A DNA stretch of 64,000 nt from Crocinitomicaceae bacterium (GTDB taxonomy: Bacteria; Bacteroidota; Bacteroidia; Flavobacteriales_D; Crocinitomicaceae), in assembly GCA_044339115.1 (NCBI GenBank), contig JBIIWA010000015.1, positions 4,818 to 68,817 of the forward strand, written 5' to 3'. A model generated the notes under the pieces. It made no database searches and was not told where the DNA came from. It worked only from the letters and a program-made list of their open reading frames with translations. How positions within the stretch are numbered: position 1 is the first letter of the stretch; every line of letters begins with the position of its first letter. Both the position numbers and the translations under genes were made by a program. Positions 39,385 to 57,200 of this stretch are shown piece by piece.

Positions 39385-40272
39385 ATGATCAATCAGACCA
39401 CAAAAGATAAAATTGAGATTTTGCACCGTCAATATCTAAACTTGGCAAAGGGAAATGAATCAATATTAAAAGAAATAGCCCTAGCCGAAATTCCTGAGTT
39501 GGTTTATAACTCAAACGCTATTGAAAATTCAACCCTTTCATTGGAAGATACAGAAAAAATCCTTGCAGGGGGAAGTATCGATCGAAAAGTAAATGTCCGG
39601 GAAGTTTATGAAGCCAAAAATTTGGCCAATCTTACCGAATCCTTATTAGAAAAAAACAAATCCTTACTTCACATTAAACACATTTTAAGCTTTCATAAAA
39701 CTTTGCTTACTAACATTGATGATAATATTTCCGGTCGTTTTAGAGTTGGCAAAGAATGGGTGCGTGTTGGTAATCACTTAGGTGCAAATCCACAGTTTGT
39801 CCCTACACTTATGCAAGAACTTGTTGATAATTACAATCAGAATAAAATCAGTTATTTTTTAGATGCTGTCGCCCATTTCCACGCAGAGTTTGAAACCATT
39901 CACCCCTTTGTTGATGGAAATGGGCGAATGGGTAGAGTGCTTATTAATCTGCAGTTAATGAATTTAGGTTTCCCTCCAATTATCATTCAAAATAAAAGCA
40001 AACATACTGACTACTATACGCTGTTTACACAGTACCAGTCAACACTTAAGTTTGGTGGTTTTACCGAGTTGTTTGCCTTACTATTGCAAGAATCTATGCA
40101 CAAAAGAATAAGCATACTTGCATCAAAAAAAATAATTCCACTTGCACTATGGGCATCGCAAAAAAAAGTAAAACCAAATGTTGCAGCCAATAAAGCCAAA
40201 AGACAAACAATTCCTGCCTTCCGAATGCGAGAAAAATGGATGATTGCAGAAGAATTTGCATCAAGCAAATAA
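39385..40272 (+). CDS. Fic-family protein (class II: N-terminal inhibitory helix present)
   Basis: Fic motif HPFVDGNGRMGR at 39901-39936. Inhibitory-motif-like SNAIEN ([ST]xxxE[GN]) at 39511-39528. Confidence 0.85.
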   Translation: MINQTTKDKIEILHRQYLNLAKGNESILKEIALAEIPELVYNSNAIENSTLSLEDTEKILAGGSIDRKVNVREVYEAKNLANLTESLLEKNKSLLHIKHILSFHKTLLTNIDDNISGRFRVGKEWVRVGNHLGANPQFVPTLMQELVDNYNQNKISYFLDAVAHFHAEFETIHPFVDGNGRMGRVLINLQLMNLGFPPIIIQNKSKHTDYYTLFTQYQSTLKFGGFTELFALLLQESMHKRISILASKKIIPLALWASQKKVKPNVAANKAKRQTIPAFRMREKWMIAEEFASSK

Positions 40273-40368: not shown

Positions 40369-40641
40369 CTATTTATTTTCTTTTTTAGCCTTTCTCATAT
40401 TATGTAAATAGGTCGAAAGCAAGACTGATTCGTAAAAAATTAGATTGTCAATTTTACATTCGGTTGGACCACATAAACAGGAGTCATTTTCACATTGATC
40501 TGCGAGACATTCCGGTTTACCAAACTTGTTGAGCGGTAATTCTGAATCCTGCAAAGGTTTAGCTTGAATCAATAGAGGATTCGTTCCTTCTTTTTTCGTC
40601 TTAAAAAAGTTGAACAAGTGTTTAATGATATTTTTTTTCAT
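40369..40641 (-). CDS. hypothetical small Cys-containing protein
   Basis: 90-aa ORF in otherwise empty space. No motif recognised. Confidence 0.35.
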   Translation of the reverse strand: MKKNIIKHLFNFFKTKKEGTNPLLIQAKPLQDSELPLNKFGKPECLADQCENDSCLCGPTECKIDNLIFYESVLLSTYLHNMRKAKKENK

Positions 40642-40884: not shown

Positions 40885-40971
40885 AAAAAAAAGCACCAAC
40901 CAAAGGAAGGCGCTTGCATCAGAGTTGTCTCCACTAACTTGTTCTCGATCCAATTTTTGGAAGATTTGGAG
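40885..40971. repeat. ~87-bp repeat, copy 1 (abuts the HepT stop codon)
   Basis: Aligns by eye at roughly 80% identity with 41657-41743. Shared blocks are GCGCTTGCATCAG, ACTTGTTCTCGA and TTTTTGGA(A/G)GATTTGGAG. On the minus strand it contains a terminator-like hairpin followed by a T run. Confidence 0.8.
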
Positions 40972-40974
40972 TAC

Positions 40975-41314
40975 TTATTTATGCTTGAGAATGAAAATCT
41001 CGTTAGATAATTTTGGAATGTCTTTTTGAATTATTGCCCATATCATCTCAGGTTCGACGGAGTCGTATGCGTGCGCAATAATATTTCTCAAGCCAATGAT
41101 ATTTTTGATTGAAGATATTTCAATTATTGGACTTATTTCAGTTATTTTTTTGATGGCTTCACCAAGAATTTCTAAATCTCGCTCGATTGCTCTTTGCAAA
41201 ATTATGTCAGACTTAAATAGGTTGAAATTATTGTCTGTTTTTTGTTTTTATAGCTTCAATTTCTAAAATGATACTCTCGATATCGAGAAAATATTTTAAT
41301 AGTTTATGCTGCAT
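40975..41314 (-). pseudogene. hepT: HepT-like (DUF86/HEPN) toxin, interrupted by a frameshift
   Basis: C-terminal part (40975-41199) carries RNIIAH-x-Y (41071-41088). The N-terminal part MQHKLLKYFLDIESIILEIEAIKTKNRQ* (41314-41228) starts at an ATG overlapping the mntA stop. The two parts are offset by +1 around the A5-C-A6 tract (T6 at 41238-41243 on the + strand). Confidence 0.75.
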
Positions 41315-41612
41315 ATAATTCGACTTTTGATTGCTCAATTTCTTCAATTAACACCCTATTTCGCAAAGATTTTTTAGTGACTAAATCAATTTTTCTTCCC
41401 ATCAATGCTTCTAATTTCTCTAAATATGAAAAGTAATTATCAGCATAGTCCAATAAGTGTAGGTCATCTGAAAACTGAACCAAAAGATCAATGTCACTTT
41501 CTTCGTTCATTGTTTCTTTTGCAGCCGAACCAAATAAGGCTATTGAAGAAACGCGATGCATTTTACTCAATGCAATTATTTGATCAATTTTATCTTCTAT
41601 TATTTTTATCAT
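41304..41612 (-). CDS. mntA: MNT-type nucleotidyltransferase antitoxin
   Basis: LFGSAAKETMNEESDIDLLV (GS...DxD pol-beta NTase motif), 102 aa, directly upstream of HepT. Confidence 0.85.
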   Translation of the reverse strand: MIKIIEDKIDQIIALSKMHRVSSIALFGSAAKETMNEESDIDLLVQFSDDLHLLDYADNYFSYLEKLEALMGRKIDLVTKKSLRNRVLIEEIEQSKVELYAA

Positions 41613-41656: not shown

Positions 41657-41743
41657 GAAAAAAGCGCCAACCTAAGGCAGGCGCTTGCATCAGTGTGGAG
41701 TCCACCGACTTGTTCTCGAACCCCTTTTTGGAGGATTTGGAGA
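41657..41743. repeat. ~87-bp repeat, copy 2 (upstream of mntA)
   Basis: See copy 1. Contains GCGCC-N11-GGCGC with a flanking A/T run and the palindrome GTGGAGTCCAC. Confidence 0.8.
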
Positions 41744-42085: not shown

Positions 42086-42778
42086 ATGGAAAAAGCTATT
42101 AAAGAATTTGAAAGGATTTTCACAGAAAGGATTTTACATTATAAAAATTTTAATTCTTTTGGTGAGGATAGTATCCGGTATGACTTTTTTAATGCACTAA
42201 TTAACATTTACAACTTAAAACCGTATCAATTTCAGTTAGAATTTCCTATTCCTATCGAACAGTTTGAAAACAAAATAAAAAAAGAAAATAGTGGGCGAGG
42301 TCGACATGAATATAAGCCAGAAGTAGACTTGTTAATTGATCCAATTAATTCATTTGATGTTGGTATAGTGGCAGAATTTGCATATTTCCGAAAGCCTGAA
42401 AAAGCCAAAAATCAAGATAAAACAGGAAAGCATGGTAAGATTTTTAATGAAATTTTTAGACTTGCCCTTATGAAAAATCATCAACAATTTAATAATTACA
42501 AGTGTTATTTAATTTGTGTTACTGATGATGAAATGATTAATTATGCCAAAGAAGGAACAAGGGGTTCTACACCAATTGGTATTCAAGATGAATATCTTCT
42601 AAATCATGATTTTTTAAGAAAAATTAAATCAACAGCAATAGGTAAAATAGATGATAAATTTAAATTAAAAGTGGCTGAGTTATCAATTACTCCATCTGCA
42701 AAAAGAATTTTCAATATTAAATCTAAAAGTAATCTAAATTGGGAGATATGGGTTTGGGAAATAGATTATGTGAATTAA
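42086..42778 (+). CDS. hypothetical protein, possibly PD-(D/E)xK nuclease-like
   Basis: 230-aa ORF isolated between 340-bp and 430-bp AT-rich non-coding stretches. EDSIRYDFF...PEVDLLID...VAEFAYFRK is loosely compatible with a restriction-endonuclease-like core. Confidence 0.3.
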   Translation: MEKAIKEFERIFTERILHYKNFNSFGEDSIRYDFFNALINIYNLKPYQFQLEFPIPIEQFENKIKKENSGRGRHEYKPEVDLLIDPINSFDVGIVAEFAYFRKPEKAKNQDKTGKHGKIFNEIFRLALMKNHQQFNNYKCYLICVTDDEMINYAKEGTRGSTPIGIQDEYLLNHDFLRKIKSTAIGKIDDKFKLKVAELSITPSAKRIFNIKSKSNLNWEIWVWEIDYVN

Positions 42779-43207
42779 AAAAGTCGAACTTCAACCATTA
42801 AAACTCTTTCTTTTTTTGATATTGAAACTCAAAATTATATCCAACTATTTCCGAATAATCTCACCTAAAAAATCCAATTTACATACTTTATTTTAACTCA
42901 TTCCAAATATGATGACTTAATTAAAGATTCAAAGACTTATATTCGATTGAAATCTATGCATGATTATATGATTGATTATTCAACATCTTTTATGATAATG
43001 ATTAATACCCTTTTTTCAATAGAGAATGAATTTCCACTAGCAAATAAATACCTGAAAATTTAAAAGGAATAATCCAAAGATGTCTTTTTATATTTTTTAT
43101 CATAAAAACTGTTTATAATTTCGATATGCTCTGTTCGGTTAACAGAAGATTGAAACTTAAACCCAATTTAACTAAACTAAATTTATATATTCGTATTCAA
43201 CAACATA

Positions 43208-43708
43208 ATGCTTAAACATCTTTCATTTAATGGAAACAAAACTGCTTACCTAATTCAAGGGCAAAAATTTGTACTGAATTTTCATTTCACTAGATGTCTA
43301 TTTGTATTGGTTTATTACAATAATGGAAAATACCCTGATGGCCGTTTTCATTTTAATAAATGTTGGAATAAAATTTCTTTAAGGTCCACTAAAGGAGCTT
43401 TTGAATCAATTACCAATGTTTATCATCCGGAGATTAAATTCATTACTTTTGGTTACGGGATAAAAATTCATCGTGTTGTCTTAAAGATTAATTTTTTCAA
43501 CACCATTGAACCAAATATTTCCATAAAAGATAGAAGTTTTACGAAAGTACCTGAAGTTAAAATCAGGGATCAAAAAGTGGTGCTGCATCCCATTGAATTT
43601 TCCAAAATGGACCAGAACCCTAAATTTCATGTTTTGGATGTTGAGTTGAACAATAAGTCTGAATTAAATTATAAGAATATTAAATTAATGAATTATGAGT
43701 CAAATTGA
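43208..43708 (+). CDS. hypothetical protein (first gene of the 43.2-49.5 kb operon)
   Basis: 166-aa ORF overlapping the next gene by 14 nt. No motif recognised. Confidence 0.5.
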   Translation: MLKHLSFNGNKTAYLIQGQKFVLNFHFTRCLFVLVYYNNGKYPDGRFHFNKCWNKISLRSTKGAFESITNVYHPEIKFITFGYGIKIHRVVLKINFFNTIEPNISIKDRSFTKVPEVKIRDQKVVLHPIEFSKMDQNPKFHVLDVELNNKSELNYKNIKLMNYESN

Positions 43709-44981
43709 TTATTTAGCAAAAGAACCTAGTAAAATTTCTAAATTTTTATGGTGGTGTGCAGGTGCAGACGAACACTTCTTAAAGATTTCGCCTATGCAGG
43801 ATAGAGTCAAATATGCTGGAATAGGCGGAATTGTACTATGTACTGGCTTATTAGCAGCATTTTCGGGTGGATATGCTTTTAATACAATATTTGGACCTAA
43901 AGGAGATGCCATTGATGATTTAGTGTTAAGCATTGGAACCATAATTGGCTCCATACTATTTGGATGTGTTTGGGGTTTAATCATTTTTAATCTGGATCGG
44001 TTTATCGTTTCTTCAACAGGTAAGGGTGATGGAACAGATAAAATAACTTGGAAAGAGGTTGGACAAGCATTACCTAGAATAGTGATTGCACTCATTTTAG
44101 GATTTGCTATCTCAGCCCCACTTGAGATTAAGATTTTAGAGTCGGAAATCAACTCTGAATTGAGTAAATATCAAAAAGAATATACTGAAAAATTGAATGT
44201 TGCAACAGATGTAGTCTTTAAACAAAAATTAGCCAAACTTGAAGTGGATAAGCAACAATATGAGACCAAATTATTAGGCTATGAAAAAGAGTTAATGGCT
44301 TTTGATACTAAAATAGATGAACTAGTTGAACAGCAAAGGCTTGAAATGCAGGATAAAAGGGCGTATGGTGACGGTCCCGTATCAAGAGCATTGGGGAAAA
44401 ACATCGCTGACAAAAAACTGGAGAAAGAGAAATATATTAATCTAAAATCTTCTGAAGTTGGCACTTGGAGAAAACAATTAAATTTCAATGACGACCAAAT
44501 CAATAAGATGTCTGATGATTTAAGAAAATCATATAAAGACAATGAGAAAAAAGCGCATGGTTATGATGGATTATTAAAGCGTATACAAATCAGTCATGAA
44601 ATAGGAGGGGTAATACCTTGGATGATTTTATGTGTATTTCTATGTATTGAAATGGGACCAATTTTCTTTAAAATGATGATGAATAAGGGGGTTTATGATT
44701 ACATGGTAGAAAATTATAACTTCAAACGACAAGTTGAAAATGGTATTTATAAGGAAGATCATCTATATGAAGGGAAAAATGGATTGATTCATATGGAGAA
44801 ATATCGTTATCTTGAAGTTGAATTGTCTAAAGAAGAAAAACTAAATAAGATTGAGAAACAAAAACAAATCAATGAGTCCATTATTGATGAGTGGTCTACT
44901 AAAACTTTAAAGGATGTGAAGGATAATCCTTCTACCTATTACACTGAAGGAAAGGACAGTGAGACGAACAATCCTGCTTAA
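43695..44981 (+). CDS. DUF4407-like membrane protein (3 TM, long coiled coil, 1 TM)
   Basis: N-terminal FLWWCAGADEHFL and IIFNLDRFIV, as I recall them for DUF4407. Hydrophobic segments lie at about aa 40-62, 77-100, 126-147 and 304-327, with a K/E/Q-rich heptad region between. Confidence 0.6.
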   Translation: MSQIDYLAKEPSKISKFLWWCAGADEHFLKISPMQDRVKYAGIGGIVLCTGLLAAFSGGYAFNTIFGPKGDAIDDLVLSIGTIIGSILFGCVWGLIIFNLDRFIVSSTGKGDGTDKITWKEVGQALPRIVIALILGFAISAPLEIKILESEINSELSKYQKEYTEKLNVATDVVFKQKLAKLEVDKQQYETKLLGYEKELMAFDTKIDELVEQQRLEMQDKRAYGDGPVSRALGKNIADKKLEKEKYINLKSSEVGTWRKQLNFNDDQINKMSDDLRKSYKDNEKKAHGYDGLLKRIQISHEIGGVIPWMILCVFLCIEMGPIFFKMMMNKGVYDYMVENYNFKRQVENGIYKEDHLYEGKNGLIHMEKYRYLEVELSKEEKLNKIEKQKQINESIIDEWSTKTLKDVKDNPSTYYTEGKDSETNNPA

Positions 44982-44992
44982 TTTTCTAGACT

Positions 44993-46117
44993 TTGAAAAG
45001 ATTGATAATTGAATTATTAGGCTTGGAGGATCATATTTTCTCCTCTGTTTCAGCTAGTGAAAAATCTTTGTTTTCACTAGTTGTTATTTGTTTTATGGGG
45101 TTTTTCCTCCTTTCAATTTTCTCTAGTTTTTTCCTTGCTTTTCTTATCACAGGATCTTATTTGTTTTCTTTTACACTTGGCTTGTTTTTAATTTTTGTGG
45201 TCAATTTTGTTATTCGTTTTTCATTATTAATTATAAAAAGACCAGTTTCCAAGGTGATTGAAGAAAATGTGGTGCTTACTGAGACAACACCAATTGCAAT
45301 CCCCATTGCAACGCCTAATGGTTCTTCTAAACTTTCCAACTTGCTCAAAAAGCTTGATGTTAGATCCATATTTACATCTGGACAAGTTCCATGGTTTAAT
45401 TTTACATTGCGGATCTTTTTCTCAACTGTTTTTGCATTAATATTAATTTTTCCGCTAACTGCTTTATTCAATAAATCAAGAGTCAATACTTTATTAGGTG
45501 AGAAAAGAATAGAATTGTATAAAGAAAATTATAAGAGTATTCACGCTGACTTTAAACTTAAAGTCAGCCGTCAGGAGCACCAAATCAGTAAGGCAACTAT
45601 CAAATTGAAAATGATATCTAAATCTGCTCAAAAAAATAGTATTAGTTTTAAAAATCAACTAGTTGAAATAGCCAATCTAAAGCAACAATTGTTAGCAATT
45701 AAAAATGAATTTTATAGTGGTATTTCAAATCAAATGGAGCTGTATAGAAGTAATTTGAATGCTGCTTATTTTCCGATTTTTATATTTAGAAATTGCCTGC
45801 ATTTAAATGGATTTTGGCTAATAGCATTCGTTATTTTTACACTTGTTTTTTTGCCACAAATTCTATTGGTAAGATTGAAGAACCACCCTGACTTTAATTA
45901 TGCTAAACTTTCTAATGAATACTATCATGGAATAATACATGGTCAATATCAAAAATCAAAAACGTGGGCGGAAGGTTATTTATCATCTATGAATAATCAA
46001 TCAAAAGTTGTTCTCAATTCAAAATATGACGATCCTCCATACAACACAAAGAAAATAAAACAAATACGCAAAGGGATATCTGATCTTGAATTTTACAATC
46101 AATTAAAAATAAATTGA
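44993..46117 (+). CDS. membrane protein with the same TM/coiled-coil/TM layout (divergent DUF4407-like?)
   Basis: TTG start. N-terminal TM cluster ending VVNFVIRFSLLI (compare IFNLDRFIV upstream), a further TM, a coiled-coil-like region, and a late TM (FWLIAFVIFTLVFLPQILLV). Confidence 0.45.
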   Translation: MKRLIIELLGLEDHIFSSVSASEKSLFSLVVICFMGFFLLSIFSSFFLAFLITGSYLFSFTLGLFLIFVVNFVIRFSLLIIKRPVSKVIEENVVLTETTPIAIPIATPNGSSKLSNLLKKLDVRSIFTSGQVPWFNFTLRIFFSTVFALILIFPLTALFNKSRVNTLLGEKRIELYKENYKSIHADFKLKVSRQEHQISKATIKLKMISKSAQKNSISFKNQLVEIANLKQQLLAIKNEFYSGISNQMELYRSNLNAAYFPIFIFRNCLHLNGFWLIAFVIFTLVFLPQILLVRLKNHPDFNYAKLSNEYYHGIIHGQYQKSKTWAEGYLSSMNNQSKVVLNSKYDDPPYNTKKIKQIRKGISDLEFYNQLKIN

Positions 46118-47376
46118 GTAGTATAACCAACTATTATAAAGGGTATTTAAAAGCCCAATTTACAACTGTTTCCAAACAGAAAATTGGATCAGTCAATGAT
46201 TCGCAATCTAAAATTATTTTGGAGCCTCGATTTTATTGCATGAATTTTATACAGGTAAAAGAAAATGAAATACCTACTTCTGCTTTGTTATCCAATACGC
46301 CTCATCTTTATCAAACTGGCCGCTTTGATATTGAATGTTATCCAGGTGAGGACCAGAAAAATGGGATTCGTAGAACTGCTACTAATATCATCTTACTGTT
46401 AAATAAAAAAAATCCCGATAATTCAGAACTTTCGAATGAATTAAGCTCCTGGCATGAATATGACTTTAAAGAGTCGAGAGAGAAACATTACGATAGCTTT
46501 CTTTCTAATAGTCAGGTAATGCCTCATGGAAGAATTGAGGGTGACGCCTACTTTTTAGTTGAAGAATTAATTGATTTAGAGGGTAAAGTAATTGTAAATT
46601 CTACTTCAGTTACGGCAAGTGGAAGCATGTCACCTGGATGTCTCGGTTTTCTAAGTGGGATTACGCAAGCAATTTATGGATTTAATCTACGACTGAAGAA
46701 TTGGTTAAATAGCTTATTTGGGAAAGCTTTTGGATCCAGTTTAATTGGACAAGAACCAAATGGTTGTATGCCATCTATGTTACCAAGTGGATGCTCCGGG
46801 CCTGGCTGCTCTCGTTTTGGTTGTGGTTTTTTAAGTTTATTACTCGGATTACTTCTGTTGCTTTGGTTGTTAAAAAACTTATTATATGGGGATTACAAAA
46901 CATCTTCTTCCAACAAAGAACGGATCATTCATGATACTATTTATGTTAATAAAGAAAAGCAGGACACATTAACTTATATAGATGAAACAACGAATACCAC
47001 AGTAAAAATGTTGAGTCTTCCCAATGTTCAATTTGAAAAGAATAAAACGAAATTACTATCGAGTTCATTGAGTGACTTAAATTCATTGGCTGATTATTTA
47101 TTGCAGAATAAAGAAATTAATGCGGAAATTATTGGTCATACCGATAGTGATGGCGATGCAACAGCAAATAAAGAATTGTCTCAATCTAGAGCTGAAGAAG
47201 TAAAAAGGTATATAGTGAGTTTAGGAGTTCAAGAATCTAGGATTAAAGCAACTGGAAAAGGGGAGTCCGAACCTAGAACAGAGAACGAAACTGCAGAAGG
47301 TCGTGCAATGAATAGAAGGGTAGAGGTGAAGTTAACACAGTATAATTCAACTAAAACCACCAGAACTAAAAAGTAA
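46114..47376 (+). CDS. OmpA/MotB-type peptidoglycan-binding-domain protein with unknown N-terminal domain and one TM
   Basis: C-terminal VQFEKNKTKLL...IIGHTDSDGDATANKELSQSRAEEVKRYIV...GKGESEP...NRRVEVKL is a clear OmpA_C-like domain. TTGA start/stop overlap with the upstream gene. Confidence 0.75.
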   Translation: MSSITNYYKGYLKAQFTTVSKQKIGSVNDSQSKIILEPRFYCMNFIQVKENEIPTSALLSNTPHLYQTGRFDIECYPGEDQKNGIRRTATNIILLLNKKNPDNSELSNELSSWHEYDFKESREKHYDSFLSNSQVMPHGRIEGDAYFLVEELIDLEGKVIVNSTSVTASGSMSPGCLGFLSGITQAIYGFNLRLKNWLNSLFGKAFGSSLIGQEPNGCMPSMLPSGCSGPGCSRFGCGFLSLLLGLLLLLWLLKNLLYGDYKTSSSNKERIIHDTIYVNKEKQDTLTYIDETTNTTVKMLSLPNVQFEKNKTKLLSSSLSDLNSLADYLLQNKEINAEIIGHTDSDGDATANKELSQSRAEEVKRYIVSLGVQESRIKATGKGESEPRTENETAEGRAMNRRVEVKLTQYNSTKTTRTKK

Positions 47377-47381
47377 CTTTA

Positions 47382-49004
47382 ATGAGCAGCGAAACCAATG
47401 TTTTATCGGATGTGATTTATTGTAAAGGCAAGCTCTTAGGTTATTCTGAGCCTGGAAAGAGTTCGCAAACCAATGGTAAAATTACCTTTTCTGATTTTTC
47501 TTGGAATTACATGCATATTGATGAAGTTCAGGTGATTGATTATTACCATTCAGAAGCATTAAAAGTGGGTGATTTTTGGTATAGAAAAGTTTTAAAAGGA
47601 AAGAAAAATTGGTGGATGTCACGTCAGTTAATTTGGAAATTTCCTACCTTAAGTTGGCCTAAGCGACCAGAAATATTTATTCCGAGAGGTGATGCCGAAT
47701 TTTATAGTGGAACTTTATACGAAGTCATTATTTCAGATTTTGCAATTATTGATAAAAGGAGTTTTGCAAGTCCGTTAATTCATTTGTCGGCTGATATTTA
47801 TTTTCAAATAAAGAAACCCCAAGTCCCACTAATTCCGGAGAAAAAAGTTACTGTAATTCAAAATAATACTTCTATCATTAATCAAGCAGTAACTGTTGGT
47901 GATGGTCTAAATGTATTGCCCGGTGACATAAGTGCAACGGCAATCGCAAGTGAACCAGTGATTGATAGTGGCCAAAATAAGCTGGCAGTTCCTAATAAAT
48001 CGAGGTCGAAAATAATGAGTTTCCTCCTATGGATTGCTGCATTATTTATCGCTTGGAAGTTCTTCCCTTTATTGGTTTTACCTATATTTTTAATAGGTCT
48101 TTCAACCATTTTATTTAGGTTTTTTAGAAAATCATGCCTTCTTATATTATTTTCTCTTATGGTATTTATTGTGGGAGGCTTATTACTGCTCTATTTTTTA
48201 TCAAATAACTATAAAACACATATTCCTCAGGACAATCGAAAGGGAACAATTAAAACCAGCCCTCCTAAATCCCAAAAAAATAAAGATGGAACTACTGATT
48301 TCACTTCAGAAAAAGAAATTCATTGGTGGGATTTTTTCAATGCAGATTATTGGGCAAGATACAATACAAGTAACACTATATTTTATGAGAGCCAACAACG
48401 ACATCAAAATATAGTATCCAATGAAACTACCAATAATAGTATTCAATTTTTTACAGATGTATACGGCCAAATGAACAAAATGGACAATTACCATATTGAT
48501 TCGTTGACAGAAATTTTTATCGCACATGCCGCTAAGGCTAATTTAAGTCCAATTAGAACTGCTGAAATGGTATCGACATTCATTCAGGAAATTCCATATT
48601 ACCTTGTTCATGATTTGAGCTGTCAGGAAGCATGTAAGCAAGGGGGTTTTACAGCACAATACCATAGCGAAAATAAACCATGTTTACCAAACATTCCTGC
48701 CGGCGTTCAATCCCCGTATGAGTTTATTCATAATTTAAAAGGTGATTGTGATACGCGTAGTTTATTAGCCTATTCGATTCTTAAAAAAATGGGTATTTCT
48801 TGTTCAGTTTGGGTGAGTGAAGCCTATGGACATAGTATTTTAGGTGTCGGATTACCCATTGGAACAGGAACATTTAAGCAAATTAATGGCGTGAAGCATT
48901 ATGCCGTTGAATTAACAGCCAAAGGATTTAAAATTGGTATGATTTCCCCAGACCATACCAATACTGATAATTGGGATATTACACTTTTTTATAATAAATA
49001 CTAA
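47382..49004 (+). CDS. membrane protein with C-terminal transglutaminase-like (papain-fold Cys-His) domain
   Basis: GDCDTRSLLAYSILKKMGISCSVWV...YGHSILGV. The Cys codon at 48747-48749 and His codon at 48831-48833 follow the G.C...a.l...lr..GI....v....H spacing of transglutaminase-core proteins. 2-3 TM segments in the middle. Confidence 0.5.
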   Translation: MSSETNVLSDVIYCKGKLLGYSEPGKSSQTNGKITFSDFSWNYMHIDEVQVIDYYHSEALKVGDFWYRKVLKGKKNWWMSRQLIWKFPTLSWPKRPEIFIPRGDAEFYSGTLYEVIISDFAIIDKRSFASPLIHLSADIYFQIKKPQVPLIPEKKVTVIQNNTSIINQAVTVGDGLNVLPGDISATAIASEPVIDSGQNKLAVPNKSRSKIMSFLLWIAALFIAWKFFPLLVLPIFLIGLSTILFRFFRKSCLLILFSLMVFIVGGLLLLYFLSNNYKTHIPQDNRKGTIKTSPPKSQKNKDGTTDFTSEKEIHWWDFFNADYWARYNTSNTIFYESQQRHQNIVSNETTNNSIQFFTDVYGQMNKMDNYHIDSLTEIFIAHAAKANLSPIRTAEMVSTFIQEIPYYLVHDLSCQEACKQGGFTAQYHSENKPCLPNIPAGVQSPYEFIHNLKGDCDTRSLLAYSILKKMGISCSVWVSEAYGHSILGVGLPIGTGTFKQINGVKHYAVELTAKGFKIGMISPDHTNTDNWDITLFYNKY

Positions 49005-49016
49005 ACTTTAAACATT

Positions 49017-49526
49017 ATGAACGCAATCATTATTATCCAGTTACTCGTTGCTTTTGTTATCGGGATCTCATCATTATTTATCATTTACAGAGCAGTTAAC
49101 TTCGCCATGTCAAAGTACTTTGGCTTGGACGACAAGGACAATACCTCTTTCACGGTGTTTCAAATGGGAATCATTATCTCTGGTGCACTCATCTTGTCAA
49201 CCATTATTGATCCTGCTATTAATGCTATTCGTATATTAAATCCTCAAGGCAGCATTAATATTTCACAAGTACTTACCTCTTTAGCATATGTAGGTCTCTT
49301 TGCACTCATAGGGATCGTTTGCACACTTGTCGTTATTGCAGCTGCCTTGGTTACCATCTTCCAACTTACAAAAATCAATGAAATTGAGGAGATGAAAAAT
49401 AATAAAATCAATGCCTCTTTAATTATCGTTGCCTTAATTATTGGTTTGTCCTTGATTATCGATAATTACTGTGGACAAATGTGTGAAACCTTAATTCCTT
49501 ATCCGGAAGTATTACAAATTCGTTAA
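49017..49526 (+). CDS. small polytopic membrane protein (about 4 TM)
   Basis: Four hydrophobic stretches in 169 aa; possibly DUF350-like, not confirmed. Confidence 0.45.
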   Translation: MNAIIIIQLLVAFVIGISSLFIIYRAVNFAMSKYFGLDDKDNTSFTVFQMGIIISGALILSTIIDPAINAIRILNPQGSINISQVLTSLAYVGLFALIGIVCTLVVIAAALVTIFQLTKINEIEEMKNNKINASLIIVALIIGLSLIIDNYCGQMCETLIPYPEVLQIR

Positions 49527-49527
49527 G

Positions 49528-50076
49528 ATGATTTTTAAGAAAATTACTGACTCCGAAACAATTTTAACGGAACTGATGATTCCAAGTTATGCCAATTTTG
49601 GAGGAAAGGTACATGGTGGCATTATTTTGTCCTTAATGGATAAAGTCGCTTACGTTACTGCAGCTAAACACGCTAGTGCATATGTAGTTACCGTTTCAGT
49701 GGAAGGAGTTGAGTTTCTGAGCCCCATTGAAGTTGGAGACTTGGTTAGTTTAAAAGCTAGGGTAAATTACGTGGGTAAAACTTCCATGATTGTTGGAATT
49801 CGTGTGGAAGCTTTAAATCCTAAAACAGGAATTATAAAGCATACAAACTCCTGTTATTTCACAATGGTTGCAAAAGATGAGAATGGCCAAGTAACAGAAG
49901 TGCCAGGTCTGTACATCTCAGATGAAGAAAGTATTCGCCGTTTTGCCGAAGGGAAAGCACTTAAGTTACTCGTTAAGCAAAAACATCAGTTACTAAAGGA
50001 AAAATTCCATAAAATGAGCATTTCAGAGATTTTGAAAAGCGTAGAAGGGGAGAAGCTCACTTTCTCACCGGATTAA
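49528..50076 (+). CDS. hotdog-fold acyl-CoA thioesterase (YciA-like)
   Basis: ANFGGKVHGGIILSLMDKVAY...VTVSVEGVEFLSPIEVGDLV...GKTSMIVGIRVEA. Confidence 0.8.
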   Translation: MIFKKITDSETILTELMIPSYANFGGKVHGGIILSLMDKVAYVTAAKHASAYVVTVSVEGVEFLSPIEVGDLVSLKARVNYVGKTSMIVGIRVEALNPKTGIIKHTNSCYFTMVAKDENGQVTEVPGLYISDEESIRRFAEGKALKLLVKQKHQLLKEKFHKMSISEILKSVEGEKLTFSPD

Positions 50077-50484: not shown

Positions 50485-50550
50485 TTACCAAAGGTTATTA
50501 TTTTTATATGAATTCGCATCATTACCGAGAAATAATTAATATATTTAAAC

Positions 50551-53500
50551 ATGTCCCACCTCGAACCCACCTACCTTCGTTACATCTACGATGGTCTTCT
50601 CAAAGGAATCATCCATCCAGAAAATGCCGCAGAATTACCTGATGGCTTAATTGGTCTTTACGATGAAGCTTTCGATGAAAGAACTTCAGTCGTTGAACGC
50701 CAAAAACTGCTGCAGCGCTTTGCTATTTGGGCACTTTTGAAAAAAGAAGTAAGTGCAGCGTTTGTTGCTGAAGTATTGGGTGACACAGAAGATAAAATAC
50801 AAGATTTTATTTCTACATATAGTTCTTGGTTCAATAGCCCCGAAAGCGGCAAGTACCAGTTGTACCATGAGCGATTAAAAGTGTATTTATTGCAGAAGTT
50901 GAGTGATGGGGAAATTTATGGGCTTCACGAAAAACTTATTTCGCGATTAGAACAAGCCATCGAAGAGCAAAAAGCAGATGAATTTGAGTGGTATGGGTTG
51001 GAGTTTTTGGGTGAACTATATTTTTCCAATTTTGATGATAAACTATTTGAAATTTCCTTTAACAAAATATTCCAAGATAGACAAGTTTTTATTCTAGGTG
51101 ATTTTCGCATTGCATTTAAAAATCTTGAGTTATCAATACTGCTTGCAAAAAGCAGAAATGACAGAAAATCTATTGTTAAAGCAAGCACGGAAAAATTGAA
51201 AATTCGAAAACGATTTCATGAAAATTTCGACCTTCTTTATGGAAGTATCAACAACAATCACGCCATTACATCTAACTTACTTGGACACTATAATAATAAA
51301 ACAAAGGGATTAGTTTCAGTTTTACTTTTTCATGAGTTTTTTGAAGGGGACCTTCAGCTACACCCCTTAAAATCGTTGTTCATACATTTAATAATGGAGG
51401 ATTTATCATCCATAGAAGATGATCCAGTTAAACGTGGATGGTTATTATCTGTCCCTGAAATTGCTCAGGATCTTTATTTACATGAGTTAAATGAATTAGA
51501 TATTGATGACTTTCATTTCAGAAAGTTGATTCAGTTTATTACAAACGATGATGATTTAGAATACGAATTTAATTTTAATGAATCTATTTCTTTATTTAAC
51601 GATGACATAGAAACTTTAGAGGATAAAACAGAAGATTTCAATTTCGCGAATTATCTTGATGATTCAGATCAAGAGGTTCCTTCATTTCTCTCATTAGATA
51701 CGTCGGAGAACCCCTTTGAATCATTGAGTATGGATGATGAAAATGAATTTAAAGCATTTTTGGCAAGTATGGGTGATAACAATATCGATTTCGACTCTAA
51801 TAAAGTGGATATAGAAAGTAATTTAAGACCCATACATACTTTTGAAGAAAGAAAGTTGCAACTAATAAATGAATTAAATAACTCAAGTAATAAATTGCAA
51901 GATTTAATTCAATTTTCTAATGAGTTAATTCGACTAAAAGAAAATTTATTTTTAGCAGAAATAGGGCTTCAATTGCTACTATCGATTTCAGATTTTGTTA
52001 AATCAAGAGAATTTAATCATTTGTACCAGACAATTATTCAAGAGCTTACAGAACGAAAACAAGAAAGTAATCCTGTTGTTTTTTCTCATGAGGTAAAAGC
52101 ATGCTGCGAAGTATTATTAGAACAACATTTCTATACTGAAGCTTTGGAGTTAATTCCATTTATCTCACAGTCGGAAATGCGTGATGATTTATATTCTTCT
52201 GCATTGAATTCATCTTATGATTTTGATAAAGAAATTTATGCAAATGTTTTGAAGAATGCATGTCAAATACATAAATTAGACACATCTATTTACATCAATA
52301 AAGGCGAATTAATTCGTGAGTTTATTTTGCAATGCAAAACGAATGAATTAGATGATATTTTTTCAAGCTCAGATAGCTTCTTTCTAACTATGCTATGTGG
52401 AAGTATTATTGAAGACGATAGACTTTTCATCAGAATTACTGACGATTATAATCTACTAAAAGTATTGATTCCGGCATTTAAGAAGACTATGAATCATTCA
52501 TTACAGAGTTTTTCAGAAATTTTCGAGATTCATTGTAATTTACAGAATGGTGAAATACCACTTTCCGAAAAAGATTTCCAATCACTGTGTAAACAAATTA
52601 GTAAAGTTGACAATAAGGAAGAACTTAAAAAGCTCTATTCCTGCTTATATCTTTTCTCCCAAAATGAGCAAATAACAGCTTTCATCCTGAGTCAATTCAA
52701 TTCGATGGTAAAAGAAAATAAAAAGATCATTTCAGAAATATTACATGATAAAAATGAACATCTTTATTTATTCAAAAGCACACTCATTATTTGGAGGAGA
52801 TTAAATGCCGCACAAAAAGAAAAGTATAAAAGTATATTCAATGAAATATATAATCAAACCAAAAATAATGAATTGAATGAAAGAAGTGCCTGTATTTTTC
52901 TGATAAATAAAGAACTTGGGTTCGAAGATCATATTTTTAGTAAGCAAAAACTCGAGTTGTCGGTTTCAATATTACTTTTAAAAAATGGATATGTAGAGGA
53001 GGCAATTGAAATAGCTACACTTTGCAAAGATTCTAATCCTGCAATTATTCAGCTTGAATTTTGGATTGAACTACTTGAACATAAAGATGATTCCGAAAAT
53101 CTAGTTAATAATTTTATTAACTTCGTAAATGATAAATTTGAGGTCTTTTCTGAGGAAATATCAATAGAAGATCAATCTTTTGTCTATGTCCCCCTTTTTG
53201 CGAGAGCGTTGAACAAACTTTATGAATTCGATAAAGTGGTTGAATTTAAATCTTTATTTCAGATATTATTGAATCATATCGAATCACTTTCTGTTTCGCT
53301 AAATGAAAAGCGCAAACTTCTTTATGTTTTTTCATTTAGCATTAATTTCAATGTTTTTAAATATATACTTTGCCTGGCAAACAAAAACCAACAACTTTTG
53401 TTAGCGAGTTCTCTTTCTTTTTTAAAAGGATATCATAAGAATATTCAGGATAAGATTCTCGAGGAATTATGTGTTATTAGAGATGATGCCGATTTGGTTG

Positions 53501-53622
53501 AAAATGCATTACTCCACCTTTCTAAATGCGATCATTTTTATTCTGATTTATTTGATACTATGAATGAAACTAGTGAAATTTTTAATTTTGAGTATTGGCT
53601 GACTTTAAAATCTCCCAAATAA
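50551..53622 (+). CDS. large helical protein A: conserved 154-aa STAND-helical/winged-helix-like N-module plus a unique arm of about 870 aa
   Basis: The N-module is ~92% identical to that of the next gene (13 differences in 154 aa, hand count). ELPDGLIGLYDEAFDER and GKYQLYHERLKVYLLQKL resemble the post-P-loop helical/WH region of NACHT/STAND ATPases. The rest is helical and AT-rich-encoded, with an acidic segment at aa 331-422. Confidence 0.6.
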   Translation: MSHLEPTYLRYIYDGLLKGIIHPENAAELPDGLIGLYDEAFDERTSVVERQKLLQRFAIWALLKKEVSAAFVAEVLGDTEDKIQDFISTYSSWFNSPESGKYQLYHERLKVYLLQKLSDGEIYGLHEKLISRLEQAIEEQKADEFEWYGLEFLGELYFSNFDDKLFEISFNKIFQDRQVFILGDFRIAFKNLELSILLAKSRNDRKSIVKASTEKLKIRKRFHENFDLLYGSINNNHAITSNLLGHYNNKTKGLVSVLLFHEFFEGDLQLHPLKSLFIHLIMEDLSSIEDDPVKRGWLLSVPEIAQDLYLHELNELDIDDFHFRKLIQFITNDDDLEYEFNFNESISLFNDDIETLEDKTEDFNFANYLDDSDQEVPSFLSLDTSENPFESLSMDDENEFKAFLASMGDNNIDFDSNKVDIESNLRPIHTFEERKLQLINELNNSSNKLQDLIQFSNELIRLKENLFLAEIGLQLLLSISDFVKSREFNHLYQTIIQELTERKQESNPVVFSHEVKACCEVLLEQHFYTEALELIPFISQSEMRDDLYSSALNSSYDFDKEIYANVLKNACQIHKLDTSIYINKGELIREFILQCKTNELDDIFSSSDSFFLTMLCGSIIEDDRLFIRITDDYNLLKVLIPAFKKTMNHSLQSFSEIFEIHCNLQNGEIPLSEKDFQSLCKQISKVDNKEELKKLYSCLYLFSQNEQITAFILSQFNSMVKENKKIISEILHDKNEHLYLFKSTLIIWRRLNAAQKEKYKSIFNEIYNQTKNNELNERSACIFLINKELGFEDHIFSKQKLELSVSILLLKNGYVEEAIEIATLCKDSNPAIIQLEFWIELLEHKDDSENLVNNFINFVNDKFEVFSEEISIEDQSFVYVPLFARALNKLYEFDKVVEFKSLFQILLNHIESLSVSLNEKRKLLYVFSFSINFNVFKYILCLANKNQQLLLASSLSFLKGYHKNIQDKILEELCVIRDDADLVENALLHLSKCDHFYSDLFDTMNETSEIFNFEYWLTLKSPK

Positions 53623-53624
53623 CC

Positions 53625-56600: not shown

Positions 56601-57200
56601 CACAACATTATTAATCTAAAAGTGGCATTAAAATCTTTAGGGATTGCAAAACGCCTACCTATTTATTCATTCTGTGAAATCCTCATTACTAAATCAATTA
56701 TTGATAAAACAGAATCTTCACTAATAACTATTTTTCCCGAATTTGAAAACAAGTCTGAACTTACCGAATATTTACATGAAATATGTTTAAAGATAAAGCA
56801 AAGTAGAAATGTTTATTTGAAAGATTTTTATCATTTCACTTTCCTTACAGAAAATACGAATAGGGATGATTTAATTAAAGAATTATTTCAAAAACGAAAA
56901 TTTAAACCTAAAAAACATTTGGTTCAACTATTCTATTTGGATGATTTTACAAGAAGAAAATTTCTTGTAAGTTTTTACAATAACATTTCAAATTTTTATA
57001 ATTCCGAAATTAATTGGTATTTAGTATATCATCTTTGTAGGTCTGATTATAATTTATTGAAGCACTTTAATTCAGAACGGATAAAAATACTTCTAATGCA
57101 GGGAAAAATACCAAAAAAACTAAGTAATTTGGTGACAGATAAAAAGGAATATCTTTCAGAGATAAACAAGTTAAACAATTTAAGTGTAGACTTAATATGA
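53625..57200 (+). CDS. large helical protein B: the same 154-aa N-module plus a different arm of about 1040 aa
   Basis: ATG at 53625 (MPHLEPTYLRYIYDG) is chosen by homology with MSHLEPTYLRYIYDG of gene A; it lies 2 nt after A's stop. The ORF-track start at 53595 would overlap A. Confidence 0.6.
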   Translation: MPHLEPTYLRYIYDGLLKGSIHPENAAELPDGLIGLYEEAFDERTSVVERQKLLQRFAIWALLKKEVSAAFVAEVLGETEDDIQDFISTYSAWFNSPESGKYQLYHERLKVYLLQKLSEGEVHALHEKLIFRLEQAIAEQKTDEFEWYGLEFLGGHLTLSCFQKNTKEKYNRLMNFALNDNYHNRQFEFSFQYQWTFNLLHSVQYLTIVLRKRDVELINLKFIEVNERLQASIHELIYLVRDGNIEITLVRINCLMSQSENEVKTKLRLILLILTDICVNNKSINSNEHYLISELLQILEFEFKKYKIDIFDLIPPNIFFQIVLFLKDSTLDYKCLLNLVIYDWGFSGISKILTPDFIKFFISSNKYRSFEIEGLFVEIRQIAYMNQVGLAQTGIDCAIMALLNEYAPERLADYLRTSFRDFLNAVSYDWIKTWLNKVMCHLHVDFIVKYLGGDLLSDHIPTNLANEIVRIEKKLEIMDSILLKVYESNSKSNEIKELIEYSENLLAYYLETETSKIRSEKVMHFFQLKLLIDTLSRKEISSLINQTIDIIKDESDDIYLKQIISTLYFFKLSEYAPRFIALYVDIKYAKSSAFLNGLLMNNQIIAINQIENVDENYLDGLIYKLNYDIWRNQLSNTSILFLENLKWFISQIKSDNSVTNINDDYWQIILGIIFNSDILECYIDTYLSEALRFSPDLIKKRFYHFVAKPKLMKRHSGVELDVIRMIDLEIELFKKTQTGQIEKLYDSLLSTFCEALIEVNWSMKNKDVYRFAKLKLEKSEIQVAINCLSEIDVSSQCFVELVFDISLKLFQGNEEIDFALEILQYVKHHFEYKEYDNGESYSYYHIDHGKQYVDLVDNLLFKILSFHQLNIKQFQELLFNVGVIDDNYNLTTKNFHSPSFIRNIIDKEVKTFICDLLNPSNTSGHNNLFSVKLGIKSLLEYELNEIEIQNILNELIEYLNQSYEQVEINLDFSKFFNNMGLSNISFFNVIHKHNIINLKVALKSLGIAKRLPIYSFCEILITKSIIDKTESSLITIFPEFENKSELTEYLHEICLKIKQSRNVYLKDFYHFTFLTENTNRDDLIKELFQKRKFKPKKHLVQLFYLDDFTRRKFLVSFYNNISNFYNSEINWYLVYHLCRSDYNLLKHFNSERIKILLMQGKIPKKLSNLVTDKKEYLSEINKLNNLSVDLI

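Follow-up and report, generated by a model that had tools for sequence, protein, structure and literature searches.

A conserved six-gene envelope cassette with DUF4407, OmpA-like and transglutaminase-like components: a candidate conflict system of Bacteroidota

A 64,000-nucleotide stretch of DNA from a Crocinitomicaceae bacterium, here called the window, contains six tightly packed genes (g1–g6) that raise the question of what such a set might do and whether it belongs to any described system. The features concerned, with positions in the window, are:

42779..43207, no strand: AT-rich non-coding leader, presumed promoter region
43208-49526, +: g1–g6 cassette, six tightly packed ORFs (ORF list)
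43208..43708, +: g1, 166 aa, small soluble beta-rich fast-evolving protein, no TM (ORF list)
43695..44981, +: g2, 428 aa, DUF4407, 4 TM with a TM3–TM4 helical hairpin (PF14362, E 3.4e-55)
44139..44558, +: g2 residues 149–288, antiparallel helical hairpin of ~10 nm (AF2 secondary structure)
44649..44651, +: g2 Glu319, invariant acidic residue within TM4, IE..PI.FK motif (alignment, codon checked)
44993..46117, +: g3, 374 aa, divergent DUF4407 paralogue, 4 TM, variable-length coiled-coil insert (hhalign)
46114..47376, +: g4, 420 aa, N-terminal beta domain, Gly-Cys-rich segment, one TM, OmpA-like domain (PF00691)
46114..46572, +: g4 N-terminal domain, residues 1–153, homologous to the g5 N-terminus (hhalign)
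47032..47316, +: g4 OmpA_C-like domain, GHTD...N..LS..RA motif (PF00691 and alignment)
47382..49004, +: g5, 540 aa, N-terminal beta domain, 3 TM, beta/alpha linker, Cys-His-Glu domain (AF2, alignments)
48747..48749, +: g5 Cys456, putative catalytic nucleophile, GDCDTRS motif (codon checked)
48831-48833, +: g5 His484 (codon checked)
48909-48911, +: g5 Glu510 (computed from the g5 start)
49017..49526, +: g6, 169 aa, DUF350-like, 4 TM, very strong constraint (PF03994)
49528..50076, +: g7, YciA-like hotdog (4HBT) acyl-CoA thioesterase, facultative (PF03061, E 4e-18)

The elements of a preliminary description of 43208-49526 as a whole are supported. Its six same-strand genes with junctions of −14, +11, −4, +5 and +12 nt match exactly the values computed from the ORF coordinates, all on the + strand, and the AT-rich non-coding DNA that it placed upstream at about 430 bp measures 429 bp, with a GC content of 23.8% versus 33.7% for the window and 32.8% for the cassette. 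The ORF list has nothing of 50 aa or more within this leader, and an Rfam search of it returned nothing at E≤0.1. Scans for consensus promoters and terminators, a set that excludes Bacteroidota promoters, gave no more matches than shuffled sequence, sigma-70-type matches included. From their spacing and conservation, the six genes are probably transcribed as a single operon. Hydropathy and AlphaFold models give 0, 4, 4, 1, 3 and 4 TM segments for g1 to g6, respectively, with a helical hairpin of ~70 residues between TM3 and TM4 of g2; therefore, all products except g1 are membrane proteins, five in total, as had been stated. The reported lack of an ATPase, nuclease or regulator also agrees with domain searches, which found no ATPase, nuclease or HTH domain in g1–g6.

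Relatives of g2 at 34–99% identity were found at 80 loci in species-representative genomes. The order DUF4407, paralogue, OmpA-like, TGase-like, DUF350-like is kept in 40 of the 44 related loci with enough sequence to judge gene order, and dN/dS is about 0.014–0.26 for every cassette gene, indicating purifying selection. Therefore, the gene set is not a chance arrangement. Whether the OmpA-like and TGase-like partners recur beside DUF4407 homologues had been left to a neighbourhood analysis; they do so in these 40 loci, the genes are co-conserved, and no known envelope-biogenesis pathway fits the set. The architecture of the cassette is well supported. It is kept in dozens of freshwater Bacteroidota, with a patchy distribution (the patterns used gave 105 confirmed matches in 185,579 species genomes). 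Its flanks are unrelated between loci and species and its location varies between genomes; from these sequences it appears to be accessory and mobile in character.

The small g1 has no domain match in Pfam, NCBIfam, PADLOC or PHROG, and its dN/dS is 0.21–0.27. Nearly every locus with available sequence at this position has a co-oriented ORF of ~100–260 aa that ends within ~45 nt of the g2 start, and an iterated HMM recognised 62 of 78 candidate sequences, including g1 of the window, as one family.

The most conserved component is g2 (dN/dS 0.02–0.05), a full-length member of DUF4407 (PF14362), a family of undescribed function for which we found no functional literature. Its AF2 model (pLDDT 77) has helices at residues 34–66, 76–107, 119–147 running into 149–221, 228–288 and 307–328. 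Based on the K+R counts of the loops (+5 for loop 2, +1 for loop 1), the hairpin of residues 149–288 is predicted to be periplasmic. The invariance of Glu319 extends to Polyangiales sequences at 26% identity; conserved charged residues in or at the membrane are N99/R102 and E319 in g2, and R75 and R140 in g3. No relative of g2 was found in the PDB by sequence or by fold. The g3 protein of the window has no Pfam match of its own. Its profile aligns with that of g2 in hhalign (94% probability, E 1e-7), and 18 of 33 g3 orthologues match PF14362 (best E 2.5e-9); E23, R75 and R140 are invariant, and dN/dS is 0.21–0.25. By these profile and orthologue matches, g3 is a remote DUF4407 member and a divergent paralogue of g2. 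The two DUF4407-like proteins with a TM/coiled-coil/TM layout of the preliminary description are thereby recovered, as the TM3–TM4 hairpin of g2 and the coiled-coil insert of g3.

Residues 307–401 of g4 match OmpA (PF00691) with an E of 4e-21, which confirms the OmpA_C peptidoglycan anchor proposed earlier. G341, T343, D344, N352, L355, S356, R359 and A360 are invariant in this domain, and matches to NCBIfam YiaD, Pal and MotB-type models are confined to the C-terminal domain. The N-terminal domains of g4 and g5 align with 95.4% probability (hhalign, E 1.8e-8, 123 columns), and a Gly-Cys-rich segment beside the membrane is common to both proteins; this shared N-terminal domain is absent from the preliminary description. 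Since the OmpA domain needs the periplasm and a signal peptide is absent, g4 would be oriented with its N-terminus inside, although the charge bias around its single TM weakly contradicts this orientation.

In g5 (AF2 model, pLDDT 81.5), relatives contain one, three or five TM segments, always an odd number, and the two termini should therefore lie on opposite sides of the membrane. C456, H484, E510 and the GDCDTRS motif are invariant in alignments of 40 and 58 sequences. Sub-threshold Pfam matches to DUF553 or Transglut_core occur in 10 of 40 orthologues, the best PDB profile match is to the catalytic GDC region of LapG (4fgo; E 0.37, non-significant), and PNGase and Rad4 are among the weak Foldseek matches. 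Whole-chain Foldseek searches with the g2 and g5 models gave nothing significant, and sequence and fold searches found no solved structural relative of any component. The papain-fold/transglutaminase-like Cys-His domain described earlier is in keeping with the invariant triad and with these concordant matches, none individually significant, which hint at a transglutaminase/LapG-like C-terminal domain that may be catalytically active. The GDC[DE] nucleophile motif followed by a His and an acidic residue, and the likely periplasmic location of the domain, are shared with LapG/BTLCP (DUF920), and tethering to the inner membrane is shared with TgpA-type membrane transglutaminases. In contrast to the LapG system, the cassette has neither a gene for a LapD-type c-di-GMP receptor nor one for a LapA-type substrate; the N-terminal beta domain and beta/alpha linker are unique to the g5 family, and TgpA_N is matched by just one of 40 g5 orthologues (E 0.089).

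The small 4-TM protein of the preliminary description is g6, a borderline member of DUF350 (PF03994, E. coli YjfL; family function not described) with an E of 2.5e-5 and 24.8 bits, just below the 26-bit cut-off. Orthologues of g6 have precomputed DUF350 matches, and its dN/dS is 0.014. No description of an association of DUF4407 with DUF350, together with OmpA-like and TGase-like proteins, was found in the literature. The co-oriented g7, absent from the preliminary description, starts 1 nt after g6. In flank clustering that counted the window among the loci, 21 loci have a member of its family no more than 8 kb from the cassette (11 downstream, 10 upstream), often directly adjacent within otherwise unrelated flanks. 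Its best NCBIfam score is to YciA, not YbgC, and is below the cut-off.

The preliminary description also spoke of a conflict-gene neighbourhood, which is borne out in the window and around its relatives. The window contains Fic/SoFic-like, MNT (PDC-S09), HepT and STAND-like NTPase genes and a weakly matched HEPN-like domain (E 0.0017). PADLOC families among 133 immediate neighbours at 28 loci include CorA-like (7), WYL (3), IetA (3), DolB (2) and SIR2 (2), as well as AbiGi, DRT, Avs2, MADS, PDC-S41/S68/M16A and STAND-TPR, as raw counts without background control from models that include generic domains. Run on the components themselves, as had been suggested, PADLOC matches only ZorB models, through the OmpA domain of g4, and the earlier view that the set cannot be assigned to a described system is upheld.

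We favour, with a confidence somewhat short of even, a peptidoglycan-anchored inner-membrane complex of undescribed type that acts as a conflict system embedded in the envelope, with an anti-phage role the most likely. The products would assemble around a membrane core of g2, its paralogue g3 and the DUF350-type g6, from which the TM3–TM4 hairpins of g2 and g3 most probably project ~10 nm into the periplasm. The accessory subunits g4 and g5 would share cytoplasmic N-terminal beta domains and differ in their periplasmic parts, peptidoglycan-binding and OmpA-like in g4 and a transglutaminase/LapG-like Cys-His-Glu domain in g5; g1 may be a small, fast-evolving cytoplasmic partner. The wall-anchored periplasmic part could register a disturbance of the envelope, leading to exclusion of phage or abortive infection. 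As output, g5 might act as a periplasmic cysteine protease or cross-linker on wall peptides or an envelope protein, or membrane integrity might be lost through the DUF4407/DUF350 core, alone or together with the g5 output. The defence role is suggested by genomic context: across the dozens of freshwater Bacteroidota that keep the cassette, it usually lies amid anti-phage genes, and this conservation and setting make it a promising candidate for a novel immune or surveillance machine at the level of the envelope. Against defence, no cytoplasmic effector, NTPase or sensor of nucleic acids can be recognised among its products, and g2 and g6 evolve very slowly (dN/dS ~0.02), like core machinery more than arms-race genes.

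The ZorB matches (best E 1e-12), NCBIfam MotB, MotD and MotY matches to the g4 C-terminus and the invariant membrane-embedded Glu of g2 could point to a divergent Zorya- or stator-type (MotAB/ExbBD/TolQR-like) ion-driven motor, with g4 as its MotB/ZorB-like subunit. Zorya also resembles the cassette in being membrane-embedded, with an OmpA-like peptidoglycan-anchored subunit and long coiled coils in a defence-island setting, and the preliminary description had recognised a Zorya-like logic without MotA/MotB homology. However, the ZorB and Mot matches are confined to the generic OmpA_C domain, no cassette protein matches ZorA or MotA_ExbB, and the fold of the g2 model does not resemble MotA, ExbB or ZorA. 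A conserved Asp is missing from the TM helix of g4, and the 230-residue N-terminal domain of this protein is unlike MotB. ZorC-, ZorD- and ZorE-like effectors are absent, Zorya has no DUF4407, TGase-like or DUF350 components, and the ZorA coiled-coil tail is cytoplasmic, whereas that of the cassette is an internal hairpin, probably periplasmic. Membership is thus largely refuted and highly improbable. A mobile-element or phage function carried as cargo (superinfection or entry exclusion, or membrane remodelling) is decidedly unlikely. DUF4407 homologues (30–32% identity, E ~1e-33) occur in 15 of 15 Lak megaphage records and in six Lak-like IMG/VR contigs, the only borderline BFVD fold matches are two uncharacterised phage proteins, and the cassette location differs between genomes; but the phage copies are solitary, without g3–g6, and the six-gene cassette was not found in viral contigs. 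PHROG gives no match to g1, g2, g3, g5 or g6, within the window the cassette is not enclosed by an integrase, tRNA or flanking repeats, and the single plasmid-collection match is actually an 11.8-Mb Nonomuraea replicon.

Rather unlikely, though weightier, is accessory envelope maintenance or remodelling functionally analogous to Tol-Pal, serving homeostasis, adhesion or stress instead of immunity, through an inner membrane–peptidoglycan tether or LapG-like processing of a surface or periplasmic protein. Like Tol-Pal (ybgC-tolQRA-tolB-pal), the cassette combines polytopic inner-membrane proteins, a long helical element reaching into the periplasm and an OmpA-like peptidoglycan binder with a clustered hotdog thioesterase, whose linkage in 21 loci parallels ybgC, the head gene of the tol-pal operon. 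With its LapG-type GDC motif, g5 recalls a periplasmic adhesin-trimming protease, g2 and g6 are under very strong purifying selection, and no toxin, nuclease or NTPase is present. Moreover, PhoP-regulated genes of Riemerella include a DUF4407 gene, and DUF4407 pairs of Polyangiales lie in unremarkable, non-defence contexts. On the other hand, TolQ, TolR, TolA and TolB have no homologue in the cassette by sequence or fold, an inner-membrane protein carries the OmpA-like domain of the cassette whereas Pal is an outer-membrane lipoprotein, and the cassette's thioesterase is only facultatively linked and closer to YciA. Tol-Pal is near-universal, in contrast to the patchy, accessory cassette with its unrelated flanks rich in defence-type genes.

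The Polyangiales pairs consist of a DUF4407 gene and a short paralogue that occur alone, without the rest of the cassette. Pairs of this type, absent from the preliminary description, may represent an older two-gene core.

For the product of the six-gene cassette g1–g6, the well-supported architecture is an inner-membrane complex that is anchored to peptidoglycan and has a pair of DUF4407 proteins as its basis, together with a periplasmic transglutaminase (TGase)-like domain. The ORF list places the six genes, and the adjoining gene g7, as follows:

43208–43708, forward strand: g1
43695–44981, forward strand: g2, DUF4407
44993–46117, forward strand: g3, remote DUF4407
46114–47376, forward strand: g4, OmpA_C
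47382–49004, forward strand: g5, TGase-like
49017–49526, forward strand: g6, DUF350-like
49528–50076, co-oriented with g1–g6: g7, 4HBT hotdog thioesterase, starting 1 nt past g6

Positions and strand of the six ORFs match the preliminary description exactly, and the junctions (−14, +11, −4, +5 and +12 nt) and the AT-rich leader (42779–43207; 429 bp, 23.8% GC versus 33.7% for the window) that it reported were confirmed. No ORF of 50 aa or more lies in the leader, an Rfam search of it gave no match, and scans for promoter and terminator consensus sequences returned counts at or below the shuffled expectation. Genes g1–g6 are presumably transcribed together as a single transcript. As had been proposed, five of the six products are membrane proteins, with 0, 4, 4, 1, 3 and 4 transmembrane (TM) helices in g1 to g6 respectively, according to hydropathy and two AlphaFold models. 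The thioesterase gene g7 was absent from the original gene set. Overall, the finding is real, and its earlier interpretation is supported and extended. The upstream gene at 42086–42778 was rejected as a cassette member, since it recurs in one locus only, and there downstream of the cassette.

The g2 protein matches DUF4407 (PF14362) over model positions 3–294 of 297, with 187.9 bits (cut-off 31.3) and an E-value of 3.4e-55. The g3 protein of the window has no direct Pfam, NCBIfam, PADLOC or PHROG match and is not significantly similar to g2 in a direct BLASTP comparison, their kinship being visible with profiles only. The g3 and g2 profiles align across TM1–TM3 with 94% probability (E 1e-7), and 18 of 33 g3 orthologues match PF14362 directly (best E 2.5e-9), with concordant precomputed and direct matches. 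On this profile evidence, g3 is classed as a divergent DUF4407 paralogue and a remote member of the family. In the AlphaFold model of g2 (pLDDT 77), TM3 runs on into a 73-residue helix that turns at an invariant proline, from which a 61-residue helix returns to TM4; a helix, a β-hairpin and a second helix lie beyond TM4. Invariant residues in or at the membrane are Asn99, Arg102 and Glu319 in g2, and the charged residues Arg75 and Arg140 in g3. Sequence searches found no significant relative of solved structure for g1, g2, g5 or the C-terminal domain of g5. The sole Foldseek matches of g2 in the PDB, TM bundles of ABC exporters, were discarded as long-helix noise (TM-score ≤0.22, rmsd >28 Å), while a search of BFVD returned two borderline uncharacterised phage proteins, the remainder being coiled-coil noise. 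No solved structure is akin to g2.

The g4 protein carries an OmpA_C domain (PF00691) at its C-terminal end (75.6 bits, cut-off 27.2; E 4e-21), and its peptidoglycan-binding residues, GHTD...N..LS..RA, are invariant in 38 sequences. An N-terminal β domain is common to g4 and g5 (95% probability, E 2e-8, 123 columns); g1 was rejected as a third copy of it (hhalign probability 0.1%). Neither g1 nor g5 has a direct Pfam, NCBIfam, PADLOC or PHROG match. In g5, Cys456 (within GDCDTRS), His484 and Glu510 do not vary in either of two homologue sets, of 40 and 58 sequences, the codon positions of Cys456 and His484 having been checked; g5 thus has the ordered, conserved Cys, His and Asp/Glu residues that mark the TGase-like/BTLCP superfamily. 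Among 40 g5 orthologues, Pfam searches returned DUF553 for six and Transglut_core for four, all below cut-off (best E 4e-4). The best PDB match of the C-terminal domain profile is the catalytic region of LapG, with the GDC motif aligned to the nucleophile (E 0.37), followed by a transglutaminase-like flagellar protein aligned on the same motif. With the whole multi-domain chain as query, Foldseek detected PNGase and Rad4 weakly (E 0.3–0.8) and nothing in the PDB at E ≤0.001. A transglutaminase/BTLCP-like fold is the best reading of the g5 C-terminal domain from these lines combined, each of which is singly non-significant. The g6 protein lies just under the DUF350 (PF03994) cut-off (24.8 versus 26 bits; E 2.5e-5), and its orthologues show precomputed DUF350 matches ranging from unmarked to faint. 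PHROGs matched the cassette proteins with generic OmpA and thioesterase families only.

Signal peptides are absent from both g4 and g5. Because the OmpA-like domain must also reach the peptidoglycan, g4 is predicted to be N-in/C-out, like MotB; its N-terminal domain, and therefore the homologous domain of g5, would be cytoplasmic. The number of TM helices in g5 relatives is 1, 3 or 5, always odd, which would place the TGase-like domain in the periplasm. In g2 and g3, the N-terminus and loop 2 are rich in Lys and Arg (+5 for loop 2 versus +1 for loop 1), which argues for periplasmic coiled-coil hairpins; at about 10 nm, these could be long enough to contact the wall. The charge bias at the g4 TM helix is weakly contrary to the N-in orientation, and the topology of g2, g3, g4 and g5 as a whole is a predicted one. 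Additionally, Gly-Cys motif repeats follow the N-terminal β domain directly before the membrane, on the presumed cytoplasmic face, and are conserved in g4 and in the single-TM g5 relatives; in g4 they occupy residues ~205–253 (window 46726–46872; e.g. PNGC..PSGCSGPGCSRFGCG). They could serve in metal binding or S-acylation, which is of note in view of the acyl-CoA thioesterase linked to the cassette.

Related loci were sought with two DUF4407 peptide patterns in one genome per species (185,579 species). The scan yielded 105 confirmed relatives, and 80 loci were kept, all from metagenome-assembled genomes of essentially freshwater Bacteroidota (Flavobacteriales, Chitinophagaceae, Cryomorphaceae and Cytophagales); three loci labelled Bdellovibrio, Comamonadaceae and Planktophila are probably mis-binned (GC 29–40%). 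BLASTP against six-frame ORFs bore out the co-conservation of the genes, the order g2-g3-g4-g5-g6 being the same wherever the contig was long enough. Among the 44 loci extending at least 6.3 kb past the g2 start, 40 have g4, g5 and g6 in order and the remaining four represent one distant variant. Directly upstream of g2, nearly all loci have a small ORF in the same orientation, and an iterated HMM assigned 62 of 78 candidate sequences, including g1 of the window, to the g1 family. Exact-protein look-ups in metagenome contigs recovered the same cassette in three unrelated contexts, plus one more. The flanks differ between loci, and the conserved unit is therefore the cassette itself. Ratios of dN/dS between the window and its closest relatives were 0.02–0.05 for g2, 0.014 for g6, 0.11–0.15 for g5, 0.14–0.21 for g4, 0.21–0.27 for g1 and 0.21–0.25 for g3. 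Each of the six is a functional gene: g2 and g6 form the constrained core, and g1 and g3 evolve fastest. In one related locus (L048, 10001–10928), g2 is divided into two ORFs by a frameshift or assembly error, and the other cassette genes are intact.

The DUF4407 family extends far beyond this cassette, with 2,823 representatives at 50% identity (E ≤1e-3) in clusters spread across phyla, and with motifs common to all. In Polyangiales (68% GC), the DUF4407 gene is followed only by an overlapping gene for a 220-aa protein with four TM helices (L087, 4268–6182; L088, 8001–9969), which has the hallmarks of g3 (N-terminal LLGLD, and NLMRLV after TM2) without the coiled coil. This pair is the core in its minimal form, with two genes, shared with Myxococcota; DUF4407 and its paralogue therefore form the older core, of which the Bacteroidota cassette is an elaboration. 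The distant Bacteroidota variant (L083–L086) has g2 at 34–36% identity, a rearranged gene order, two TGase-like genes, and another Cys-rich domain in place of OmpA on the same N-domain-plus-TM scaffold. In L084 (8078–14543), for example, the genes encode in turn a TGase-like protein (371 aa), a 260-aa TM protein, DUF4407, an N-domain-plus-TM protein with a Cys-rich, non-OmpA C-terminal domain (325 aa), a g3-like protein, a TM-plus-TGase-like protein (309 aa) and a DUF350-like protein. An AAA_5 ATPase is encoded slightly downstream of this variant.

The conflict-gene neighbourhood noted earlier was recovered, with Fic, MNT-HepT, HEPN-like, STAND-like and CorA-like genes near the cassette. The PADLOC models for the defence candidates SoFic and PDC-S04 recognise the product of the Fic-domain gene (39385–40272, forward strand), 3 kb upstream, with E-values from 7e-37 to 5e-29; the MNT-HepT pair is PDC-S09-like, and the HEPN-like gene has a weak Pfam match (E 0.0017). 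Among 133 immediate neighbours in 28 loci, PADLOC identified CorA-like proteins (7), WYL (3), IetA (3) and DolB (2), as well as AbiGi, a DRT reverse transcriptase, Avs2, MADS components and several PDC candidates, and Pfam added SIR2 (2) and STAND-TPR proteins. As raw counts without a background control, these neighbours are typical of defence islands. The commonest neighbour is the thioesterase, found within 8 kb in 21 loci (window counted), downstream in 11 and upstream in 10, and often directly adjoining; the flanks are otherwise unrelated, which suggests a facultative component rather than a fixed chromosomal landmark. In at least 14 loci (L001, L003, L012, L015, L018, L022, L027, L036, L043 and others), a gene for a CorA-like membrane protein of about 450–490 aa (PADLOC CorA models, best E 7e-16) adjoins the cassette; its side and orientation vary, and it is mostly followed by a gene for a partner of ~195 aa. 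The window copy (63017–64000, reverse strand) lies 13.5 kb downstream of the cassette and runs off the right end. The CorA-like gene could act as a functional partner of the cassette or constitute a defence module of its own.

In this setting, the cassette is quite possibly an envelope-level conflict or defence system. It recalls Zorya in joining a wall anchor to coiled coils within a defence island, as had been pointed out; however, it fails every defining feature of Zorya except the generic OmpA domain, and membership was rejected. PADLOC returned ZorB models only, through the OmpA domain of g4. Of the ZorB features (short N-terminus, TM aspartate, peptidoglycan-binding domain), g4 has the last alone: its N-terminal domain is 230 residues long, and its TM helix lacks a conserved acidic residue. 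No PADLOC ZorA or Pfam MotA_ExbB match occurs in the six proteins, the fold search with g2 found no stator protein, and PADLOC matched none of the effectors ZorC/ZorD, ZorE and ZorF/ZorG to g1, g2, g3, g5, g6 or g7. More generally, no component set of any one defence system in PADLOC-DB v2.0.0, which covers systems described up to 2023, was matched. The lack of MotA/MotB homology reported earlier holds, as Pfam and NCBIfam gave no match beyond OmpA_C, TolQ/ExbB and TolR/ExbD homologues included. A stator-type motor is highly improbable.

It is rather unlikely that the cassette is an accessory envelope-maintenance system. The ybgC-tol-pal operon combines a thioesterase with trans-envelope genes, and the cassette likewise groups a thioesterase gene with those for inner-membrane proteins, an OmpA-like protein and a helix in the periplasm, but the Tol-Pal proteins have no homology to those of the cassette. 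A mobile-element or exclusion function is improbable. No tRNA and no bracketing repeats were found around the cassette as signs of a mobile element. Each of the 15 Lak megaphage records encodes a DUF4407 homologue (30–32% identity, E about 1e-33), as do six Lak-like IMG/VR contigs (e.g. L090, Prevotella phage Lak-B5, MK250024.1, 6977–8236; further L091–L096); it is solitary there, without other cassette genes.

Within the defence reading, a new class of envelope immune machine is a tentative and somewhat unlikely proposal. The periplasmic DUF4407 coiled-coil stalks of the wall-anchored complex would detect phage crossing the wall, and the response would be a membrane-tethered periplasmic cysteine protease or transglutaminase (LapG and TgpA being the nearest, if remote, enzymes to the g5 domain), membrane depolarisation, or both. 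A further idea, prompted by the recurrence of the thioesterase and by the Gly-Cys-rich segments beside the membrane, is that acyl-thioester chemistry takes place there. If the immune-machine reading were true, it would give a first function to DUF4407, a family of over 2,800 clusters (50% identity) that Lak megaphages also carry, perhaps for exclusion or counter-defence. With a role in defence or surveillance, the cassette would join Zorya as just a second type of immune machine anchored to the wall in the envelope, with entirely different parts and in a phylum, Bacteroidota, whose immunity is poorly explored. In the searchable literature, DUF4407, PF14362 and the combination of DUF350 with OmpA and transglutaminase appear in gene lists only, and a 2026 defence-discovery paper covering Bacteroidota mentions none of these domains. 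The cassette unites the orphan families DUF4407 and DUF350 with three unnamed ones (g1, the g4/g5 N-terminal domain and the g5 TGase-like domain) in one testable unit, reveals the older two-gene core common with Myxococcota and ties the family to megaphages. Residues suited to mutagenesis are Cys456 and His484 of g5, Glu319 of g2, Arg75 and Arg140 of g3, and Asp344 and Arg359 of g4.

Other features were observed in the same region. Between the Fic gene and the HepT/MNT pair, inside the conflict-gene neighbourhood, a SAM-I/IV riboswitch (RF01725; 40693–40795, reverse strand; 44.8 bits, gathering score 41.1) lies upstream of a 90-aa Cys-rich ORF (40369–40641, reverse strand). The toxin-antitoxin pair itself (HepT, 40975–41199; MNT, 41304–41612) is bracketed by an 85-nt direct repeat (40887–40971 and 41658–41742; 85% identical), and may be a small mobile or duplicated regulatory unit. 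A 300-nt direct repeat (50546–50845 and 53620–53919; 84%) corresponds to the N-termini of two consecutive giant ORFs, 50551–53622 (1023 aa) and 53595–57200 (1201 aa). Neither has a Pfam match, the 1023-aa product has no PADLOC or NCBIfam match and the 1201-aa product no PADLOC match; the two look like paralogous large proteins with a common N-terminal module.
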